This document shows, piece after piece, positions 9,817-61,346 of a stretch of 64,000 nucleotides of DNA. The stretch is taken from contig NZ_JAQNDL010000004.1 in NCBI RefSeq assembly GCF_028368995.1, forward strand, positions 64,001 through 128,000. Direction: 5' to 3'. A program made the position numbers and the translations under genes. The notes under the pieces were generated by a model, which saw only the letters and a list, made by a program, of their open reading frames with translations, searched no databases and was not told the DNA's origin. Source of the stretch: Nannocystis bainbridge. Its GTDB lineage: Bacteria > Myxococcota_A > Polyangia > Nannocystales > Nannocystaceae. Positions within the stretch are counted from its first letter, which is position 1. Every line of letters begins with the position of its first letter.

Positions 9817-9906
9817 ATCGGGCATATCGCCGAGGACATGCCGTCGGGGCATGCTCCTCAGGACATGATGTCGAGGACATGTCGCGCGGGACATGTCCTG
9901 AAAGGA
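9817..9906. repeat. cluster of GGACATGTCC-family palindromic repeat units
   Basis: gaggacatgcc / ggggcatgctcc / aggacatgatgtcgaggacatgtcgcgcgggacatgtcctgaaagg, in the convergent junction between mqnD and the ABC ATPase. Confidence 0.8.
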
Positions 9907-15973: not shown

Positions 15974-16052
15974 CGGGCATGTCCAAAGGGGCATGTCCGA
16001 ACAGGAATGTCTGAAGGGGCATGGTCTTCGGGAAATGTCCTGAAGACCATGC
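15974..16052. repeat. tandem array of GGRCATGTCY units, period about 14-15 bp
   Basis: gggcatgtccaaag gggcatgtccgaaca ggaatgtctgaag gggcatggtcttcgg gaaatgtcctgaag, in the convergent junction between the EEP and band-7 genes. Confidence 0.8.
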
Positions 16053-28530: not shown

Positions 28531-28672
28531 CGCCAGGACATGTCCTGGCGGTCATGCTGCTTTCGGGCACCGTGTCGCGCGGTCGCCGAGGCGCGCTCGG
28601 CGGCCATGGCTCAAGGGACATGCTCGAACGGGCATGTCCGCTCGGACATGCCCGTGTGGACATGCCTCGAAG
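28531..28672. repeat. cluster of GGACATGTCC-family units
   Basis: ccaggacatgtcctggcggtcatgc ... gggacatgctcgaacgggcatgtccgctcggacatgcccgtgtggacatgcc, in the convergent junction between the PBP and acyl-CoA dehydrogenase genes. Confidence 0.8.
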
Positions 28673-28673
28673 G

Positions 28674-30482
28674 TCAGCCGAACAGGCTCGGGTCGAGCGC
28701 GCTCTCGTCGTTCGACTGGATGCTCTTGCCGAGGGCGATCGCCTGGGGGAGCAGGGCGGCGACGAAGAACTCGAGGTTGCGCTGCTTGCCGACCAGGAGC
28801 GGCTCGTCGCCGCGGGTCTCGCGGAGGCGGGCGGCGACCAGCGCCTGCTCGACGGTCTCGAGGGCGAGCAGGACCAGGCCGAACATGCGGGTGAACGGGA
28901 CGGCCTGCGTCATCGCGGCCTCGACCTTGCGCGCCTTGCCGAGGCCCGCGAGGTGCATCGCGCTGGCGGCCAGCAGCTGCACGGCCTTGCCGATCGCCTC
29001 GGCGGGGCCGGCGAGCCCGGCCTCGGCGGCGACGGTGAGCCGGCCCTGGGCCTCCTGCATCCAGTCGATGAACAGCGCGCCGCCGCTGACCCGCAGCTTG
29101 CGGCCGACCAGGTCCATCGCCTGGATGCCGTTGGTGCCCTCGTAGATCGAGCAGATCTTGACGTCGCGGACGAGCTGCTCGACGGGGTACTCGCCGATGT
29201 AGCCGTAGCCGCCGTAGACCTGGACCGCGCTGACTGCGACCTCGAAGCCGAGGTCGGTGCAGGTGGCCTTGAGGATCGGCGTGAGCAGGTCGACGCGGCC
29301 GCGCAGGCGCTCGCGCTCGGCCGGGTCCTCGGCGGCGTGCTCGCGGTCGACGACCAGCGCCATGCGCAGCAGCAGCGACCGCATCGCCTCGACGTAGACC
29401 TTCTGCGTCATCAGCATGCGGCGGACGTCGGGGTGCTGGACGATCGCCACGCTCGGCGCGTCCTGGCTGCGAGCCTCGCGGATCGACTGGCCCTGGATCC
29501 GCTCGTGGGCGTAGCCGCGGGCGAAGTTGTAGGCCGCGGCCGCGATCGCGTGGCCCTGCACGGCGACGCCGAGGCGCGCCTCGTTCATCATCAGGAACAT
29601 CAGCTCGATGCCCTGGTTCTCCTGGCCGAGCAGGACGCCGCGGCACGGGGCGTCGCCGCCGAGGCCGAGCACGCAGGTCGAGGAGCCGTGGATGCCCATC
29701 TTCTCCTCGATGCGCAGGACGGTGGCGCCGTTGCGGGCCCCGAGCGCGCCGCCGGCGTCGAACTCGAACTTCGGGACCATGAAGAGCGACAGGCCCTTGG
29801 TCCCCTTGCCGGCGTTCGGGGTGCGGGCGAGCACCAGGTGGACGATGTTGGCGGTGAGATCCTGGTCGCCGCCGCTGATGAAGATCTTCTCGCCCTCGAG
29901 CAGATAAACGCCGGGCTCATCCGTGGGGGTGGCACGACAGCGGTTGTCGCCGACCGAGCTGCCGGCGCCGGCCTCGGTGAGGCACATGGTCCCGCCCCAC
30001 TCGCCGGTGAACATCTTGCGGGCGACCATCTCCCGCGTGGCCGCCGGGCCGTGGTCGACGATGACCCGCGCGGCGCCGACGGTGAGGCCGGGGTACATCA
30101 TGAACGCCATGCAGGCGCCGCACAGCATCTCGCTCAGGCTGAGATGGATGGCGAAGGGCAGGCCGCTGCCGCCGAGCTCGCTGGGCGCCGAGGGCGCCAG
30201 CCAGCCGCCGTCGCGCAGGACCTCCCAGGCCTCGCGGTAGCCCTTCGGGGTCGTCACGTTGCCCTGGCCGTCGAAGTGGCAGCCCTCGCGATCGCCCGGG
30301 GCGTTGATCGGCGCCAGGACCTCCCGCGCCAGCCGCTCGCCCTCGGCGAGGGTGGCCTCGTAGACCTCGCGGTCGAGGTCGGCGAAGCGGGGGATCGCCG
30401 CGAGCTGCTCGTGGGCGGCGAGTTGGTCGAAGAGGACGAAATGGAGATCGCGGAGGTCGACGGAGAAGCTGGAGGTGCTCAC
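28674..30482 (-). CDS. acyl-CoA dehydrogenase (long form, about 600 aa)
   Basis: ACAD N, middle and C domains plus a C-terminal extension. Confidence 0.85.
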
Positions 30483-34661: not shown

Positions 34662-34690
34662 GCGTGCGTGGCGCTGATGATCGCGAGCTC

Positions 34691-34806
34691 GCGGTCGCGT
34701 GCGAGCTAGCGAGGCCGCGCGACTCGGCGGTCGCGTGCGAGCTAGCGAGGCCGCGCGACTCGGCGGTCGCGTGCGAGCTAGCGAGGCGACGCGACGCGGT
34801 GGTCGC
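34691..34806. repeat. 38-bp tandem repeat, about 3 copies
   Basis: GGTCGCGTGCGAGCTAGCGAGGCCGCGCGACTCGGC is repeated directly, and the third copy is degenerate. It lies in the convergent intergenic region between mtaB and the MBL gene. Confidence 0.7.
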
Positions 34807-34840
34807 GTCGTCACGAGCCGAGCCGGGGCCAGGCTGGCCG

Positions 34841-34866
34841 CGAGGACATGTCCTGGCGGCCAGACG
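34841..34866. repeat. single GGACATGTCCTGGCGG unit
   Basis: cgaggacatgtcctggcggcc is almost identical to the unit at 28533-28553. It sits immediately 3' of the MBL gene. Confidence 0.7.
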
Positions 34867-39547: not shown

Positions 39548-40279
39548 TCAGGCGCGGGGCGGGCGGGCGCCGAATATGGCGGTGCCGACCCGGACCATCG
39601 TCGCGCCTTCCTCGATCGCGACCTCGAAGTCGGCGCTCATGCCCATCGAGAGGTGGACCAGGTCGACGCCCGGGCGCGCGATCGCGGCTTCACGGCGCGC
39701 CAGCTCGCGCAGGCGGGCGAAGTGGGGCCGGGTCTGCTCCGGATCGCCCTCGGGCGGGATCGCCATCAGGCCGACGCAGCGCAGCTCGGGCCGGGCGGCC
39801 ACCCGATCGAGCAGCGCCGGCAGCTCGCTCGCGGTGACCCCGGCCTTTTGCGCCTCGTCGCCGACGTTGACCTCGACCAGGAGCTCGAGCGGGGTGGTGG
39901 CGCCTCGACCGGCGCGCAGGCGCGCGACCTCGCGGGCGAGCTCGTCGACGAGGGTGGGCCGGTCGACGGTGTGGACCAGGGCGCCGACGCCGACGACCTT
40001 GCGCACCTTGTTGGTCTGCAGCGGGCCGATGAAGTGCCAGCGGGGTGGCGTGACGGCGACGTCGACGACCTCGACCTTGGCCACCAGCTCCTGGGCGTAG
40101 TTCTCGCCGAAGTCGCCCAGGCCGGCGTGGCAGGCCGCGATCACGGCCTCGGGCGGCTGCTTCTTGCTGACGCCGATCAGCGTCGGCACCGGACCGGGGC
40201 CGCGCCGGGCCACGGCGGCGGCGACCCGGGCGCGCACGGCGGCGAGGTTGGCGGCGATGTCGTCTGGCGTCAAGGACAT
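39548..40279 (-). CDS. yggS: YggS family pyridoxal-phosphate homeostasis protein
   Basis: MSLTPDDIAANLAAVRARVA...LIGVSKKQP...GENYAQEL. The start codon is embedded in a repeat unit. Confidence 0.85.
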   Translation of the reverse strand: MSLTPDDIAANLAAVRARVAAAVARRGPGPVPTLIGVSKKQPPEAVIAACHAGLGDFGENYAQELVAKVEVVDVAVTPPRWHFIGPLQTNKVRKVVGVGALVHTVDRPTLVDELAREVARLRAGRGATTPLELLVEVNVGDEAQKAGVTASELPALLDRVAARPELRCVGLMAIPPEGDPEQTRPHFARLRELARREAAIARPGVDLVHLSMGMSADFEVAIEEGATMVRVGTAIFGARPPRA

Positions 40280-40366
40280 GGCGTGAAGGACATGTTGGAA
40301 AGAGAAGGTCGAGAGCGCGGAGCCGCGGGGCGATGTCTCGAAGGACATGGCGCGAGAGACAGGTGA
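40272..40366. repeat. cluster of AAGGACATGGCG units
   Basis: aaggacatggcgtgaaggacatgttggaaag ... tcgaaggacatggcgcgagagacagg, overlapping the yggS start codon. Confidence 0.7.
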
Positions 40367-41337: not shown

Positions 41338-41460
41338 GCCGGGATGGTAGCACGCGCGGCCGCCAGGCCCGCCGGGGCAGGGATGGGAGCAGCCGGCCGG
41401 AGTGCCGCGGCCGGGCCCGGGCGGGATCGAAGGCGAATGCGGCGGGGGCGTGCGAGCGAG

Positions 41461-41701
41461 GCGAAGCACACGAGGCAGCGGCGGCGTTGGCCGCGACGGG
41501 CGTTCGAGAGTCGGCCGCGAGGCGAAGCACACGAGGCAGCGGCGGCGTTGGCCGCGACGGGCGTTCCTGAGTGGGCGGCGAAGCGAAGCACAGAGGCAGC
41601 GGCGGCGTTGGCCGCGACGGGCGTTCCTGAGTGGGCGGCGAAGCGAAGCACAGAGGCAGCGGCGGCGTTGGACGCGACGGGCGTTCCTGAGTGGGCGGCG
41701 A
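41461..41701. repeat. 60-bp tandem repeat, 4 copies
   Basis: GCGAAGCACA(C)GAGGCAGCGGCGGCGTTGGCCGCGACGGGCGTTCCTGAGTGGGCGGCGAA repeated head-to-tail with period 60-61 and more than 95% identity. It lies in the divergent intergenic region between the 40372-41337 gene and maf. Confidence 0.85.
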
Positions 41702-41823
41702 GGCATGCGAGGTAGCGGAGGTCGCGGGAGGCGGGCGAGCGAGGCGAAGCGCACGGGGCCGGGTTCGGTGCGGGAGGGACGCGAGGTTGCGGGCGCGGCC
41801 GCGATCCGGCAGACAGGCGGACC

Positions 41824-42423
41824 ATGACCGAGCTCGCTCCGCCCAGCCCGCCCATCCTCGTGCTCGCCTCGGCTTCGCCGCGCCGGGCCGAACTGCTCCG
41901 CTCGGCGGGGATCGCGTTCACGCAGGCCCCGGTCGACTGCGACGAGGCGTGGCTGCCCGACGAGCGGGCGCCGGCGTACGTCGAGCGGGTGGCGCGGGCC
42001 AAGGCCGACCTGGCCTTGCGGCCAGGTGCAGTGGTGCTGGCGGCCGACACGACGGTCTGGATCGAAGACCAGGTCGCGCCGCTGATGAAGGCGGAGAGCC
42101 GCGAGGAGGCGGCGACGATGCTGAAGCGGCTGGCCGGGCGCTCGCACTTCACGACGACGGCGGTGGCGATCGCCGACACACGCGGGGCGGAGGTCCGCTG
42201 GCACCCGTTCGCGGTGACGACGCGGGTGTGGTTCCGGCCGCTGACGGCGGCGCAGATCGGTCGCTACCTCGACACCCAGGAGTGGCGCGACAAGGCGGGG
42301 GCGTACGGGATCCAGGGGGCGGCGGCGGGGCTGGTGCGCCAGATCGAGGGCAGCTACACGAACGTGGTCGGGCTGCCGCTGGCGGAGGTGGTCGAGCTGC
42401 TCGAAAAGCTCGGCGTCGGTTGA
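41824..42423 (+). CDS. maf: Maf-like nucleoside triphosphate pyrophosphatase
   Basis: LVLASASPRRAELL...AADTTV...AGAYGIQG Maf motifs. Confidence 0.85.
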   Translation: MTELAPPSPPILVLASASPRRAELLRSAGIAFTQAPVDCDEAWLPDERAPAYVERVARAKADLALRPGAVVLAADTTVWIEDQVAPLMKAESREEAATMLKRLAGRSHFTTTAVAIADTRGAEVRWHPFAVTTRVWFRPLTAAQIGRYLDTQEWRDKAGAYGIQGAAAGLVRQIEGSYTNVVGLPLAEVVELLEKLGVG

Positions 42424-42544
42424 GGCGAGGGCGGAGCCTCGGGGGCGCGAGCTGTCGCTGAACCGGGGCCCGGGGACCGATGGGGGTCCGAGCGGCGGGA
42501 GAGGTCAGCCGATGACACGCCGCGGCTCGCCGGCGCTGATGTCC

Positions 42545-42730
42545 CTTCGACCATGTCCAGAAGGACAGCGAGGTCTCCGCGGTCGGCGTACCCGCCGGCT
42601 CGCAAAGTGCTGGCCAAACGGACATGTCCTCACGGACATGTGCGGTTCACGTCGGCGGGCCGAGCTTGTCGCCGACTTCGTACAGGAAATGAGCCGACCG
42701 TGAGGACATGTCCTCGAGGTCAGCCGCGGT
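42545..42730. repeat. GGACATGTCC units interleaved with a 47-bp direct duplication of the adjacent gene's 3' end
   Basis: ccatgtccagaaggacag ... aaacggacatgtcctcacggacatgt-[47-bp copy]-atgagccgaccgtgaggacatgtcctcgaggtcagcc-[47-bp copy, the true CDS end]. Confidence 0.8.
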
Positions 42731-43957
42731 TCACGTCGGCGGGCCGAGCTTGTCGCCGACTTCGCACAGGAAGTGCGAGCTGCTGGCGCCCTTGCCGTTC
42801 ATCGGGAAGGCGAAGTAGCCGGTGAGCACGGGGGGCTGGACGTCCAGCTTCCAGTCGTAGAAGAGCGAGCAGCCAGCGCAGTTGGTGGTGCCGGGCTGAC
42901 CGGCGAAGATCTTGTCGGAGACCCAGTAGGGCTGGTCGAGGTCCGGGTTCGCGGGGTCGGGCTTGAGGGCCCACTGCGGGCAGTCCTCGCTGTTGAGCGG
43001 CTTGCCCACGCAGCTCTGGCCGGGGGTGACGGGGTAGATGCCGAGGATCGAGAGGTAGCCGGCGACGTCGCTGTCGACGTCGAGGTTCGGGGTGTAGTCG
43101 CCGGTGTCGTGGACCGCGCCGAAATCGGTTGCGCTCGCGGCGATGAAGGCGGCCCGCAGGTGCCGGTCGCTGCGCGGCGCGAGCAGCCGCAGGCCCCAGG
43201 TAGCGCACTTCTGCTCGGCCTCGGCCGCGGTGAGCGGCTGGGGCAGGAAGGTGTCGAGGTCGAGCACGGTGCCCGAGGCGTATTTTAGAAAGGAGTAACC
43301 GCCGCCGTCGGCCTCCATGTCGCACCAGGCGGTGAACATCAGGTCTTCGCGGCGGAGGACGTAGAGGCCAGTCGGGACCGCGTCGCCAAACGAGTTCTTG
43401 ATCTCGAGGCACGAGCTGGCGCGGGAGCAGTCGGCGAGGCAGCCGTAGTGCGGGTTGGGGTCGTCGCAGGTCTCGCCCTCGTCGGCCTGGACCATGGAGT
43501 CGCCGCAGCGCGGGGCCCAATCGTCGCAGTAGCGGCCGCACTGGCCGTACTTGCCGTTCTTGTGCTTGCCGTCGTCGCACAGCTCGTCGCCGGCCTTGAT
43601 CAGGCCGTCGCCGCAGACGTTCCAGCGGCAGGCGGAGGTGCACTCGGCGTCGTCGGCGTTGGCCTCGCCCTGATCGCAGAGCTCGGGCGGATCGATCTTG
43701 CCGTTGCCGCACGGGTCGGGCCCGGCGTCGGTGGTCGAGCCGCTGTCACTGTCGCCGTGGCCCGGGTCGACCGTGGTGGTCATGATGCCGGGGTAAGTGG
43801 TCGAGCCGTCGCTGCCGGGGCCGCTGCTGGTCGAGGACGCGGGCAGGGTCGGGTCGTTCTGGCCGGCGTTGCGATCGAGGCAGCCCGCGAGCAGCAGCGC
43901 CAACCCGCAGCGGCCCAAGACTCCGATCTGGACGCGAGGAGAGATGCGTGGGTGCAT
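42731..43957 (-). CDS. secreted lipoprotein with Myxococcus-type Cys-rich repeats and a fibrinogen-like C-terminal domain
   Basis: Lipobox LLAGC. Repeats CGNGKIDPPELCDQG and CGDGLIKAGDELCDDG are TIGR02232-like. The C-terminal LYVLRREDLMFTAWCDMEADGGGYSFL is fibrinogen-related-domain-like. Start ATG 43957. Confidence 0.65.
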   Translation of the reverse strand: MHPRISPRVQIGVLGRCGLALLLAGCLDRNAGQNDPTLPASSTSSGPGSDGSTTYPGIMTTTVDPGHGDSDSGSTTDAGPDPCGNGKIDPPELCDQGEANADDAECTSACRWNVCGDGLIKAGDELCDDGKHKNGKYGQCGRYCDDWAPRCGDSMVQADEGETCDDPNPHYGCLADCSRASSCLEIKNSFGDAVPTGLYVLRREDLMFTAWCDMEADGGGYSFLKYASGTVLDLDTFLPQPLTAAEAEQKCATWGLRLLAPRSDRHLRAAFIAASATDFGAVHDTGDYTPNLDVDSDVAGYLSILGIYPVTPGQSCVGKPLNSEDCPQWALKPDPANPDLDQPYWVSDKIFAGQPGTTNCAGCSLFYDWKLDVQPPVLTGYFAFPMNGKGASSSHFLCEVGDKLGPPT

Positions 43958-46048: not shown

Positions 46049-46500
46049 GCGGGGCTCCCTGCGGGGGTGGTGACGGTGGTGACGGGGGTGGTGGTCACGA
46101 CGGAGAGGATGGCCTCGGCCAGCGGCTGACCGCGGCGGGTGACGGCGGCCCGGTACTCGGCCATGGCGCCGGCGAACACGCGGGTGGCGACGATCTGCAG
46201 CGGGTCGCCGACGGCCAGGTGTTCGGCGTGCAGCTCGAAGTTGCGGCAGGCGGCGATGAGGCCGACGGCCGGCGGCTGACCGCTGGCGCGGGCGCCGAGG
46301 CCGGCGAAGGCGGCGATCGCCTGGGCCATGTACTCGAGCAGGGCCGAGGCGTGGACGCGGCCGTCGACGAGGAACAGGTTGCCCGGGTGGACGACGGCGG
46401 CGCAGGTGATGCCGTCGTCGTCGGCGGCGACGACCTCGTCGAGCAGCAGCATCGGCGGGCGCTGCGGGACCAGCTCGGCCACCGGCGGGAAGGCGGTCAT
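46045..46500 (-). CDS. hotdog-fold 3-hydroxyacyl-ACP dehydratase (FabZ/ApeP-like)
   Basis: 151 aa, PPMLLLDEVV...HPGNLF hotdog dehydratase pattern. Overlapping start and stop with its neighbours. Confidence 0.65.
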   Translation of the reverse strand: MTAFPPVAELVPQRPPMLLLDEVVAADDDGITCAAVVHPGNLFLVDGRVHASALLEYMAQAIAAFAGLGARASGQPPAVGLIAACRNFELHAEHLAVGDPLQIVATRVFAGAMAEYRAAVTRRGQPLAEAILSVVTTTPVTTVTTPAGSPA

Positions 46501-47297
46501 GCGCCGGCTCCGAGCGCGCACTGCCAGCCGACCGCGAGGTGCGGCTCGAGGGCGACGCGCGCCGCGGCGCCGGCGGCCAGGGCGTCGAGCAGGGCGATCG
46601 CGGGGGCGCACGGGCTGGCGGCCAGGGCGGCCGGGATGACGCGTGGCCCCGGGGACATGTCGCAGGGGCCATGTTCGAGGCGACATGTCCTCGCGGGCAT
46701 GTCGCTCGGGCCAGCCGCGGACAGGGCGAAGGCGGCGGCGAACGGGTCCCAGCGGCGGCCGGCGGCCAGCGGCTCGGGCAGCGGCTCCTCGGCGATCACG
46801 AGCACGACGTCGCCCTCGCCGGCGGCGACCAGGGCGGCGCACTCGAGCAGGCCCATGGCGAGGGTCGAGGGCCCGGCCGAGATGGCGGCGTTGCCGGCCC
46901 GGTTGCCGGTGGCGATCGAGACGTAGCCGGCGGCCGTGTTGTGGACGCTGTTGTGGAATTTGGTCGGCGACAGCGGCTCGCCGGCGACCAGCAGGGCGGC
47001 GAGCAGGTCGAGGGTGGTCCGGATCTCGCCGTAGACGGAGCCGTAGACGAAGGTGGCGGCGGCGCGATCGAGGCCGCCGTCGTGCAGGGCCTGGGCGGCG
47101 ACCTCGGCGGCCATGCGGGTGAGCAGGCTGGTGCGCCGGCGCATCATCGGCGGCAGCAGCTCGGCTCGGGGGGCGGCGTCGGCGGAGGTGACCTGTCCTT
47201 CGGGACAGGCGTCGGGCCGGGCCCTCCAGGCGGCGACGTCGGGGTAGCCGGGCGACCAGAAGCCGAGGCCGCGGACGGAAAAGGCGAGCGCGCTCAT
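46497..47297 (-). CDS. beta-ketoacyl synthase N-terminal-domain protein (chain-length-factor-like)
   Basis: KS-like fold with no active-site Cys context, 266 aa, translationally coupled to the KS gene. Carries an in-frame repeat-encoded segment, DMPARTCRLEHGPCDMSPG. Confidence 0.65.
   Translation of the reverse strand: MSALAFSVRGLGFWSPGYPDVAAWRARPDACPEGQVTSADAAPRAELLPPMMRRRTSLLTRMAAEVAAQALHDGGLDRAAATFVYGSVYGEIRTTLDLLAALLVAGEPLSPTKFHNSVHNTAAGYVSIATGNRAGNAAISAGPSTLAMGLLECAALVAAGEGDVVLVIAEEPLPEPLAAGRRWDPFAAAFALSAAGPSDMPARTCRLEHGPCDMSPGPRVIPAALAASPCAPAIALLDALAAGAAARVALEPHLAVGWQCALGAGA
46652..46706. repeat. GGACATGTCC-family units inside a CDS, in frame
   Basis: gggacatgtcgcaggggccatgttcgaggcgacatgtcctcgcgggcatgtcgc sits within the CLF-like KS gene. 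Confidence 0.7.
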
Positions 47298-48475
47298 GCC
47301 GGGCCCCCGACGAGGACGCTGCAGTTGCTGCCGCCGAACGCGAACGAGTTGCTGAGGGCGGCGCGGGTCGGGACGTCGCGGCGGGCGGTGACGACGTCGA
47401 CGGCGAGGCTGTCGTCGAGCGGGTCGGCGCCGACGCTGGCGGGCAGGTAGCCGCCGGCGATGGCGTCGACGACGAAGGCGACCTCGGTGGCGCCGGCGGC
47501 CCCGAGCATGTGGCCGGTGTAGCCCTTGGTGGCGACCACGGCGGGCGCGCGGGCGCCGGCGAACACGGCCCGGATCGCGGCGCTCTCCATGCTGTCGTTC
47601 TGCTTGGTGCCGGTGCCGTGGGCGTTGACGTGGTCGACGTCGGCGGCGGACAGGCCGGCGTGTTGCAGGGCGCGCTCCATCGCCATGCGGGCGCCGAGGC
47701 CCTCGGGGTGCGGGCTGGTCATGTGGTAGGCGTCGGAGCTCTCGCCGACGCCGAGCAGGCGGGCCGGGCCTTCACCTGTCCTTTCGACCAGGAGCAGGGC
47801 GGCGCCCTCGCCGATGTTGATGCCGGCGCGCTCGCGCGAGAAGGGGCGACATGGCTTCGAGGACAGGACCTCGAGGCCAGCGAAGCCGCGCACGGTGAGG
47901 CGACACAGGCTGTCGACGCCGCCGACGAGCACGGCGTCGCAGAGGTCGGCGGCGAGCAGGCGCTGGGCCGAGGCGAACACCTTGGCGCTCGAGGAGCAGG
48001 CGGTCGAGACGACGTAGGCCGGGCCGCCGAGGCCGCCGCCGAGCACGCGCGCGAGGTGGAGGACGGCGTCGAGGGCGTGCGAGTGCTCGACGTCGTAGTG
48101 GGGCGGGAGGGCGCCGCCGTGGGCGTGAGCGTGGGCGTAAGCGGTCTCGCTGGCCTCGATGCCGCCGGTGCTGGTGCCGAGCACGATGGCGACCCGATGG
48201 GCGCCCCAGCGAGCGCTCGCGCGGGCGAGCGGGGCCTGCAGCTCGGCGAGGGCGACGGCGGCGATGCGCGCCTGGCGAGTGTCGCGGACGACGCCGAGAG
48301 ACGCGGGCAGCGGCGGCAGCGGGGTCGGGATGGCGCCGACGACCGCGTCGAGCTCGAACTCGGCCGGGCACGGGCCGAGGCCGGAGCGACCGGCCCGCAG
48401 GGCGGCGAGCACGGCGGCGGTGCTGTCGCCCATGCCGTTGCAGAGGGCCATGGCGGTGATCGGGAAGGGCTGCAT
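47294..48475 (-). CDS. beta-ketoacyl-ACP synthase (KAS I/II-like)
   Basis: Active-site VVSTACSSS, HGTGT and the Gly-rich C-terminus NSFAFGGSN. Confidence 0.85.
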   Translation of the reverse strand: MQPFPITAMALCNGMGDSTAAVLAALRAGRSGLGPCPAEFELDAVVGAIPTPLPPLPASLGVVRDTRQARIAAVALAELQAPLARASARWGAHRVAIVLGTSTGGIEASETAYAHAHAHGGALPPHYDVEHSHALDAVLHLARVLGGGLGGPAYVVSTACSSSAKVFASAQRLLAADLCDAVLVGGVDSLCRLTVRGFAGLEVLSSKPCRPFSRERAGINIGEGAALLLVERTGEGPARLLGVGESSDAYHMTSPHPEGLGARMAMERALQHAGLSAADVDHVNAHGTGTKQNDSMESAAIRAVFAGARAPAVVATKGYTGHMLGAAGATEVAFVVDAIAGGYLPASVGADPLDDSLAVDVVTARRDVPTRAALSNSFAFGGSNCSVLVGGPA

Positions 48476-52967: not shown

Positions 52968-53025
52968 CGAGGACATGTCGCATGAGACATGTTCGATAGA
53001 GCATGTTCAATGGGTCATGGGACAG
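52968..53025. repeat. cluster of GRCATGTYC units
   Basis: gaggacatgtcgcatgagacatgttcgatagagcatgttcaatgggtcatgggacag. Confidence 0.75.
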
Positions 53026-58865: not shown

Positions 58866-58990
58866 GGACATTCTTTAAAAAGGGGCATGCCCGAAAGGGA
58901 ATGTCTGAATGAGCATGTCTGAAAGGGAATGTCTGAAAGGGCATGTCTGAAAGGGCATGCTCGTCTGCACATGTCCGGATGGGCATGAGG
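58866..58990. repeat. tandem array of GGRATGTCTGAAAG units, 14-bp period, 6-7 units
   Basis: ggggcatgcccgaaag ggaatgtctgaatg agcatgtctgaaag ggaatgtctgaaag ggcatgtctgaaag ggcatgctcgtctgcacatgtccggatgggcatgagg, located after trpF. Confidence 0.85.
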
Positions 58991-60619: not shown

Positions 60620-60716
60620 CGGGACATTTTCGAGAGGACATGTCCGCGAACTAGTCATAAAGGACATGCTCGAGAGGACATGCTTTTACGAGCATGTCCT
60701 CTCGAGCATGTCCGAA
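60620..60716. repeat. GGACATGTCC-family cluster containing a 16-bp-stem perfect hairpin
   Basis: gggacattttcgagaggacatgtccgcg ... ctcgagaggacatgc-ttttac-gagcatgtcctctcgag-catgtccgaaactg, in the convergent junction between the Mur ligase and the LDLa lipoprotein genes. Confidence 0.8.
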
Positions 60717-60728
60717 ACTGAAAAGAGG

Positions 60729-61346
60729 TCAGCAGTCGAGCTCGTCGGAGCCGTCGGGGCAGTCCGGGGCCATGTCGCACTTCCAGGACGCCTGGATCTC
60801 GGTGCCGTCGGTGCAGGTGAAGGCCTCGAGGCCGCAGCCGGTGACCTCGTCGGAGCCGTCGGCGCAGTCGGGGACCTCGTCACAGGCCCACGCCTCGGGG
60901 ATCTCCTTCTTGTTGTCGCCGGTGCAGGTGAAGGCCGCGAGGCCGCAGCCGCTGACCTCGTCGGAGGCGTCGGGGCAGTCGGGGTTCTCGTCGCAGACCC
61001 AGGCGGGGTTCTCGAGCAGGGTGCCGTCGCTGCAGACGAAGCCCTCGCCAGTGGTGCCGGCGGTCGCGTCGGTGGAGGAGTCGGTCGCCTCGCTGGTGCT
61101 GGTCGGCGCGTCGGTGGTGGTCGGCGCGCTGGTGCCCGAGTCCGTGCCGGTCGAGTCGTCCGTATCGGCGCTGGTGCCGGTGGTCGCTTCGTCGGTGGTG
61201 CCGGAGGTGCTCGTGGTCGTGCTGGTCTGCGGGCCGATGTTGGTATCGGTGAATCCGTCACCGAGGTTGATCGTGCACCCGGCTGTCGCGAGGCCCTGGC
61301 TCATGAGGGCGGCGACGGACAAAAATTTGGCGAGGTCGATGTTCAT
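60729..61346 (-). CDS. lipoprotein with three LDL-receptor class A-like repeats
   Basis: Lipobox ATAGC, a Thr/Ser-rich linker, then three copies of C.DG..I...W.CD...DC.DGSDE..C. Confidence 0.65.
   Translation of the reverse strand: MNIDLAKFLSVAALMSQGLATAGCTINLGDGFTDTNIGPQTSTTTSTSGTTDEATTGTSADTDDSTGTDSGTSAPTTTDAPTSTSEATDSSTDATAGTTGEGFVCSDGTLLENPAWVCDENPDCPDASDEVSGCGLAAFTCTGDNKKEIPEAWACDEVPDCADGSDEVTGCGLEAFTCTDGTEIQASWKCDMAPDCPDGSDELDC

Follow-up and report, generated by a model that had tools for sequence, protein, structure and literature searches.

A duplicated gene 3' end within an intergenic palindromic repeat array of Nannocystis bainbridge

Palindromic DNA is stabilised by a central asymmetry, and in Escherichia coli it undergoes hairpin or cruciform processing by SbcCD as well as template switching at quasipalindromes. 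The repetitive extragenic palindromic (REP) sequences and bacterial interspersed mosaic elements (BIMEs) of enterobacteria and pseudomonads are short and abundant palindromic units, single or clustered, found mostly right after stop codons and between convergent genes; REPs bear a GTAG head that is conserved and are accompanied by a RAYT (Y1) transposase gene. Short templated insertions (PMC8421209) and short-range template switches (PMC7954356) have been described as well; such insertions, associated with MMBIR (microhomology-mediated break-induced replication) or synthesis-dependent end joining, are known mainly from eukaryotes. Here we analyse a locus of Nannocystis bainbridge in which the 3' end of a gene is present twice, the second copy lying within an array of palindromic units. 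It belongs to a stretch of 64,000 nt (assembly GCF_028368995.1, contig NZ_JAQNDL010000004.1, positions 64,001 to 128,000), which we call the window and which has a G+C content of 71.8%. The gene (42731..43957, minus strand) encodes a DUF4215 Cys-repeat/fibrinogen-like YCDxxxxGGGW protein, and when 56 nt containing the second tail are removed in silico, three units again form a perfect palindrome. The gene tail therefore seems to have been copied into the array, near the centre of the palindrome, rather than a unit inserted beside the gene with a 47-nt target duplication; we lean towards this reading with some reserve.

A search allowing up to three mismatches located a 47-mer from the end of the gene at exactly two sites, 42726-42772 and, with one mismatch (T at 42681 versus C at 42765), 42642-42688; none occurred in 100 shuffles. 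Within the 47-mer are 13 codons, the stop codon TGA (42731-42733) and 5 nt of 3' flanking sequence. The full duplicated block is, however, 50 nt long (42642-42691 versus 42726-42775), with a second mismatch at 42689/42773, and it is for this block that the description in the initial annotation, the last 14 codons and stop, holds, but not for the 47-mer. That annotation was right about the duplication itself and about the units, with perfect copies of GGACATGTCC at 42620 and 42704 and a truncated one, GGACATGT, at 42634. Its outer copy (42643-42689) was one base off, since the true start is 42642; the displacement is 84 nt and not 83, and the gap between the 47-mers 37 nt and not 36. The offset of 84 nt equals 28 codons, so that the frame is kept. 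In the same register, 12 further identical nucleotides, GGACATGTCCTC, occur at 42620-42631 and 42704-42715, separated from the 50-mer by 10 unmatched bases, and the whole amounts to a 72-nt repeat with 89% identity.

The inner copy (42726..42775, minus strand; the last 14 codons, stop and 5 nt of 3' flank) is identified as the source by sequence comparison and by reading the orthologues: it is joined directly to the gene body and matches the orthologues over CACTTCCTGTGCGA... The outer copy (42642..42691, minus strand) differs from it by two transitions, CAC>CAT and TGC>TAC, the latter with loss of a conserved Cys. Between the two tails lies unit U1, a perfect GGACATGTCC (42704..42713), and beyond the outer copy unit U3, equally perfect (42620..42629). 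The middle unit, U2, is split into its left 8 nt (GGACATGT, 42634..42641) and its right 2 nt (CC, 42698..42699). After this CC comes the spacer GTGA (42700-42703), exactly reverse-complementary to the TCAC spacer at 42630-42633. Six bases, AGCCGA on the plus strand (42692..42697), separate the outer copy from the remainder of the split unit. They would be filler if the tail was copied in, whereas in a module insertion they would join the next CC to give a terminal repeat, albeit imperfect (GGTCGGCT, minus strand).

The end of the gene has itself been altered. An GGCTGACC motif, located out of frame 4 nt before U1 (42718..42725, minus strand), corresponds to the ancestral last codon and stop (GGC TGA CC) of this gene in all orthologues. 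Adjacent to it is a lineage-specific stretch of 12 nt, GACGTGAACCGC (42726..42737, minus strand; also in the outer copy, 42642-42653), which stands in place of CGAR in the orthologues and makes a new stop, so that the protein ends in ...PPT* instead of ...PPEG*. Because it is present in both tail copies, GACGTGAACCGC is older than the duplication; the search of the window for a second source retrieved no copy besides those in both tails. Read on the minus strand, the locus thus comprises the gene body, CACTTCCTGTGCGAAGTCGGCGACAAGCTCGGCCCGCC, GACGTGAACCGC, GGCTGACC tcga GGACATGTCC tcac GG and TCGGCT, followed by CATTTCCTGTACGAAGTCGGCGACAAGCTCGGCCCGCC, GACGTGAACCGC and ACATGTCC gtga GGACATGTCC gttt GGCCAGCA. 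The 34 nt between the 50-nt copies are GGCTGACC tcga GGACATGTCC tcac GGTCGGCT, that is, GGCTGACCTCGAGGACATGTCCTCACGGTCGGCT.

In-silico deletion of 42642-42697 (56 nt, the 50-nt copy plus the six bases) rejoins GGACATGT and CC and leaves perfect units at 42620, 42634 and 42648, in 14-bp phase and separated by TCAC and GTGA, each the reverse complement of the other. The core of the product is a perfect 38-bp palindrome, with a predicted fold of -24.3 kcal/mol as DNA (z -8.2) and of -46.1 kcal/mol as RNA (z -6.1). A comparable perfect multi-unit palindrome does exist in the window, at 60662-60713, with a perfect 24-bp stem (-48.4 kcal/mol, z -14). The locus thus has what is expected of a templated insertion: 50 nt of the insert copy a sequence 84 nt away, and excision of the insert yields a coherent ancestor. 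The ends of the array also resemble the ancestral state, because GGCTGACC, a 4-nt spacer and a unit are found likewise in N. exedens, and the outer flank, GTTTGGCCAGC, is similar to that in a metagenome contig, L016 (TCTTGGCCAGCC). Likewise, the outer flank of U3, AAAC plus TGCTGGCC (42608-42619), resembles GGCCAGCC, which in N. exedens, L016 and N. radixulma comes after the unit.

The duplication was also found in a second strain, L017, an independent Logan assembly of SRR28201026 from a closely related strain (99% identical). Of 3567 positions, 15 differ between L017 and the window; L017 shares 405 of the 408 residues of the protein and contains the same duplication with identical junctions. 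Its outer copy has one differing base, where CTC>TTC is a third change, and its split unit another, which places two of the 15 differences between the strains in the 64 nt that insert and split unit occupy together. The same junctions together with private single-nucleotide polymorphisms in an independent assembly rule out an assembly artefact and, because L017 has the same duplication and junctions, the duplication is older than the split of the two strains. The next relative is only 71% identical in the protein.

We then compared seven orthologous loci, sought by the synteny of a halogenase gene, the DUF4215 gene and a convergent maf gene: those of N. sp. RBIL2 (L001), N. punicea (L002), N. 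radixulma (L003), N. pusilla (L004) and N. exedens (L012-14, L022), plus a read-assembly contig (L015) and the metagenome contig L016, which is 1.5 kb long and contains the gene alone. All seven have a single tail, with GGCGACAAGCTCGG once per locus, and the deduced proteins end in ...GDKLGPPEG* or ...PPG*. All seven also have a GGNCATGTCC unit 6-25 nt after the stop; in L001, L002, L004 and L015 there are three units in 14-bp phase, degenerate to varying extents, and N. exedens shows GGCTGACC ctgc GGACATGTCC, with the same 4-nt distance between motif and unit as in the window. Because all seven loci have units and a single tail, the units are ancestral at this site and the second tail a novelty of the N. 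bainbridge lineage. The comparison proposed in the initial annotation therefore does reveal an empty site for the tail copy, but none for a repeat unit, contrary to what would be expected of an insertion sequence or a miniature inverted-repeat transposable element (MITE). Nor do relatives show a duplicated tail devoid of units, the pattern that would have spoken for an independent tandem duplication; they show the opposite, units without a duplicated tail. A metagenome search for an intact three-unit array at this locus retrieved three contigs with at least three perfect units straight after stop codons, none of which corresponds to this locus.

If the tail was copied into the array, the ancestral locus would have read, on the minus strand, GGCTGACC tcga GGACATGTCC tcac GGACATGTCC gtga GGACATGTCC gttt GGCCAGCA. 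A break or a replication stall would have occurred 3 nt off the symmetry centre, between GGACATGT and CC of the middle unit, and the free 3' end of the plus strand (...GGACATGTCC TCAC GGACATGT) would then have paired out of register with an intact copy, anchored by the 12-nt GGACATGTCCTC common to the outer and inner units. Its extension by ca. 50 nt into the neighbouring gene tail and its rejoining, through 6 nt of filler, to the far end of the break, by template switch or synthesis-dependent end joining, would have produced the 56-nt insertion at 42642-42697, splitting the middle unit and abolishing the perfect palindrome, and would have left a non-functional second copy of 14 codons, stop and 5 nt located 84 nt downstream of the original. 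The register of the tail copy, 84 nt, is that which aligns GGACATGTCCTC at 42620 with GGACATGTCCTC at 42704, as expected if this pre-existing 12-nt identity anchored the out-of-register pairing, and the copy begins exactly where a 3' end anchored on GGACATGTCCTC would extend, from 42726 into the tail.

The pattern of the insert reads as a signature of template switching or synthesis-dependent end joining. As with described templated insertions, it is tens of bases long, in direct orientation and with its source less than 100 nt away, there are a few filler bases at one junction and about 12 nt of homology at one switch point, and a clean excision restores the presumed ancestor. It differs in residing in a bacterial palindromic array, with a pathway that is deduced from a single product. 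The locus also agrees with what is known of palindrome instability, because the insertion is 3 nt from the centre of the deduced 38-bp perfect palindrome and abolishes central symmetry; in this case, however, breakage is deduced from the sequence, and 38 bp is short beside those palindromes that prove lethal or highly unstable in E. coli.

When 108 unit clusters were scanned systematically for direct repeats on their flanks, along the lines suggested in the initial annotation, only two strong cases were returned, the gene-tail locus and a junction between two ketoacyl synthase (KS) genes. In the window (47280-47310; overlap at 47294-47297) and in N. radixulma (L003, 2700-2740) this junction is uninterrupted, and the genes overlap by their stop and start in ATGA. 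In N. sp. RBIL2 (L001, 2594-2705), N. punicea (L002, 2459-2690), N. pusilla (L004, ~2600-2778) and N. exedens (L022, 6541-6684), conversely, the junction is filled with homologous DNA that bears units and is 66 to ~190 nt long. On either side of it, 21-23 nt of the junction (CGTCGGAGGCCCGGCATGAGCGC) are directly duplicated, an S-X-S structure that preserves the first gene's stop as well as the second gene's start. As deduced from protein distances, the four filled species form one clade, so that one change on an internal branch suffices, and N. bainbridge and N. radixulma are the two deepest lineages. The claim that the repeat family is recombinogenic is thus sustained, both by the association of the tail duplication with the units and by the S-X-S arrangement in four species. 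The lengths of the two duplications, 50 nt and 21-23 nt, do not correspond to a target duplication of fixed length.

Other local repeats were seen around these KS genes. The N. punicea insert contains (L002, 2482-2660) an internal direct repeat of ~48 nt, whose copies flank a GC-rich stretch and each consist of two degenerate units plus CGAAGTTCATCCTC, which is another local duplication within unit-bearing DNA. An array of four units in 14-bp phase (46653-46704) is located inside an open reading frame (ORF; 46497-47297, minus strand) for a Ketoacyl-synt_2 protein, whose Pfam alignment ends at residue 195, right before the peptide encoded by the array; all orthologues of this ORF contain units at the same position. 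This array is flanked by a 24-nt direct repeat (83% identity; 46569 and 46758) with an in-frame spacing of 189 nt.

Several observations weigh against copying of the tail into the array. An intact three-unit palindrome at this locus was found in no genome, and the closest available relative, L017, already has the insertion. The 12-nt homology at one switch point is followed by 10 unmatched bases before the copy; synthesis would have started from a partly mismatched 10-nt 3' end, which is unusual, and there is no microhomology at the second junction, that with the 6-nt filler. The presence of GACGTGAACCGC in both copies demands a separate, earlier event. Moreover, the 34 nt between the copies resemble a complete single-unit module, with ends (GGCTGACC ... 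GGTCGGCT) that are complementary at 6 of 8 positions, and a module-type event, unit-bearing DNA with a 21-23-nt target duplication, did occur in the genus at the KS junction. The last two points lead to a refined form of the initial annotation, in which this 34-nt module was inserted 5 nt past the stop, directly before an older two-unit array, with a 50-nt target duplication in an S-X-S arrangement. The locus before insertion would have been a single tail, TGA ACC, GCACATGTCC GTGA GGACATGTCC GTTT, lacking the GGCTGACC-unit module, and the duplication could have arisen by widely staggered, filled-in breaks or by a replicative template switch to another array with return 50 nt upstream. Single-unit modules with the same 8-4-10-4-8 architecture as the 34 nt are present at 28536, at 34844, in N. 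exedens and in L016, and GGCTGACC also occurs at non-orthologous arrays (28672, 60727 and L019), for which reason its presence here need not reflect orthology. Yet the TCAC and GG of the module must by coincidence complete ACATGTCC GTGA into an in-phase unit and a 38-bp palindrome, at odds of ~1/256 if just the spacer is counted; a terminal motif of the GCTGACC type, which the orthologues have at the stop, would be missing from the presumed older array, and it takes more changes to arrive at the stop region from the orthologous CGAGGGCTGACCnnnn. Furthermore, modules do not occur in the window as near-identical copies of a master element, a donor was not found, and the two target duplications are unequal, unlike the products of a transposase. 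We thus regard module insertion as a live but rather doubtful explanation, and the long target duplication as originally proposed, by insertion of a unit, is not supported, because units are ancestral and excision of the copy restores the palindrome. The evidence decides neither for tail copying nor for module insertion.

Replication slippage is a less probable origin still, and we consider it improbable. An 84-nt slipped-strand tandem duplication of the tail plus the first unit (or one of 72 nt plus filler), followed by remodelling of the array through substitutions or gene conversion from other units, would explain the head-to-tail periods, the 84-nt offset and the 62 of 84 shared positions; besides, slippage does act at these arrays, because the number of units varies between species in 14-bp steps. 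However, the periods are not identical throughout: a 10-nt block (ACATGTCCGT versus GGCTGACCTC) and a 12-nt block are unmatched and adjoin a 50-nt block with 96% identity (two differences), which makes uniform divergence untenable; six specific substitutions are needed for a chance in-phase unit; and there is neither a unit nor microhomology at the required third breakpoint in the gene, at ~42788. Absence of a third unit at that position also rules out homologous unequal crossing-over between neighbouring units, the other origin considered in the initial annotation. A functional outer copy, by read-through extension, a small ORF or a selected structure in the 3' untranslated region (3' UTR), is highly improbable. 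Its in-frame offset is expected by chance in one of three cases, the duplication is fixed in two strains, and the present sequence is predicted to fold with a 16-bp stem around the copy (as RNA of the gene strand, -67.2 kcal/mol, z -2.2; of the opposite strand, -76.9 kcal/mol, z -4.7). Nonetheless, two of its three substitutions, counting that of L017, are non-synonymous and one loses a conserved Cys, no orthologue has the duplication, Rfam gave no match and a scan of 42300-42900 no promoter or terminator consensus, and a TGA stop without recoding signal lies between the gene and the copy. The outer copy therefore looks like a decaying, non-coding relic.

Other candidate origins were rejected. 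A whole-gene tandem duplication followed by deletion would need both novel junctions to coincide at the same point of one unit, and a staggered cut with fill-in at the unit would have duplicated unit bases beside the insert, which is instead bordered by GGACATGT and CC. A known RNA or tRNA target is not supported either, with no Rfam matches at gathering scores and no tRNA genes in the window. As in attL/attR integration, there is a direct repeat of a gene 3' end with the outer copy displaced downstream; but only 34-37 nt separate the copies, with no integrase or recombinase-bearing element and no cargo, and the copy and a repeat unit interrupt each other. With MITEs and Correia-type elements the family shares terminal inverted repeats, dispersion and, at the KS junction, a filled/empty polymorphism with target duplication. 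It differs from them in that the duplications (21-23 and 50 nt) are variable and far longer than those made by transposases, its members in the window are not near-identical, and units are ancestral at the tail locus.

The repeat unit is a 10-bp core centred on CATG, and its arrays follow a strict 14-bp period. The GGACATGTCC motif has 25 matches in the window with at most one mismatch, versus 1.8 expected. Besides the tail locus, arrays are found at 9834-9898, 15975-16040, 28616-28667, 46653-46704, 52971-53010, 58883-58976 and 60636-60713, and single units at the tip of long palindromes at 28536 and 34844. Using a gene call based on G+C at third codon positions, an array or module is located within 20 nt of a stop codon at six of the eight convergent junctions of the window (9834-9898, 15975-16040, 28536-28667, 34844, 42609-42725 and 60636-60713), and two more arrays directly follow the stop of tandemly oriented genes. 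At the tail locus, the array and the duplication are contained in the 307-nt spacer between the DUF4215 gene and a convergent gene for a Maf-family nucleotide pyrophosphatase (41824..42423, plus strand; ORF list and Pfam). The motif GCTGACC flanks arrays and holds the TGA stop of the adjacent gene at 28672-28679 and 60727-60734, and also in L019 (~1421-1427), and it supplies the last codon and stop in the orthologues of the DUF4215 gene.

The modules in the window share just the 10-bp core and a G.CTG.CC-type flank, and their stems and spacers differ with compensatory changes. For instance, 28630 and 28644 are a pair of non-palindromic variants, GGGCATGTCC gctc GGACATGCCC, and the four units at 60662-60713 form a nested A-gaga-B-ttac-C-tctc-D palindrome. 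Because unit variants are compensated across arrays, the feature that is selected or generated would be dyad symmetry at the scale of the array. The array hairpins have predicted z scores of -3.7 to -14; at the sites orthologous to the tail locus, on the other hand, folds are weak (z +0.1 to -2.4) and give no support to a conserved terminator hairpin there. A scan of 42300-42900 for intrinsic terminators revealed no terminator-like site, since a U tract is missing, nor are the arrays followed by a run of T. The arrays might act as terminators that are bidirectional or U-less, and the placement of the family and its stable hairpins suggest a candidate bidirectional terminator, insulator or REP-like element.

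The Nannocystis units indeed resemble REPs and BIMEs in their abundance and position at gene 3' ends, in forming stable hairpins on either strand and in a copy number that differs between species at a conserved site. They differ in their CATG-centred 10-bp core and 14-bp phase, in lacking a GTAG head in the units and flanks read, and in that some arrays are within coding sequence (46653-46704). Each of the 13-kb Nannocystis loci L001-L004 contains four to six motifs, and loci of other Polyangia contain none or one, without enrichment. Rfam retrieved no match for the family at gathering scores; a literature search by motif and for Nannocystis intergenic palindromes yielded no description of such repeats, the motif letters leading only to papers on p53 response elements. 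The family is thus apparently undescribed and genus-specific.

The DUF4215 gene product has 408 amino acids in the N. bainbridge annotation and ends in ...HFLCEVGDKLGPPT*; it is 100% identical to P0001 of this species, a 'fibrinogen-like YCDxxxxGGGW domain-containing protein', and matches the Pfam family DUF4215, a myxococcal Cys-rich repeat. Immediately upstream of maf, at 41456-41704, there is a 60-bp tandem repeat of about four copies with 95% matches, and the orthologous region of L001, L002 and L004 likewise contains tandem repeats. Units also occur at ~40274-40352, at the 5' end of a YggS-like (Ala_racemase_N) gene on the minus strand, whose likely start codon is within a unit (cgccATGTCCttg), and a 36-bp tandem repeat (34682-34808; 3.5 copies, 93% matches) adjoins the single-unit module at 34844.

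The duplication is probably a lineage-specific neutral scar that links a local copying error to the palindromic array. It has no obvious consequence for the cell, and its value is that of a well-resolved footprint, dated against a second strain, five other named species and two contigs, that shows at base resolution how a palindromic intergenic array gains foreign sequence. Together, the tail locus and the KS junction suggest that these arrays are fragile or prone to template switching, and that they can duplicate and displace gene ends, which offers a route to changed C-termini, 3' UTRs and operon junctions. The family to which they belong marks convergent gene ends in a genus with genomes of 11-13 Mb. 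Only as a tentative proposal, these 14-bp-phased units might spread and be remodelled without a transposase, by template switching at stalled hairpins, leaving S-X-S scars with target duplications of 20-50 nt. If so, the units would build perfect hairpins at most convergent gene ends, often supplying the stop codon, and the duplicated tail and the split KS junction would be two fossils of one process, which would also rewrite gene termini, as in the change from PPEG* to PPT* and in the array within the KS-like coding sequence.

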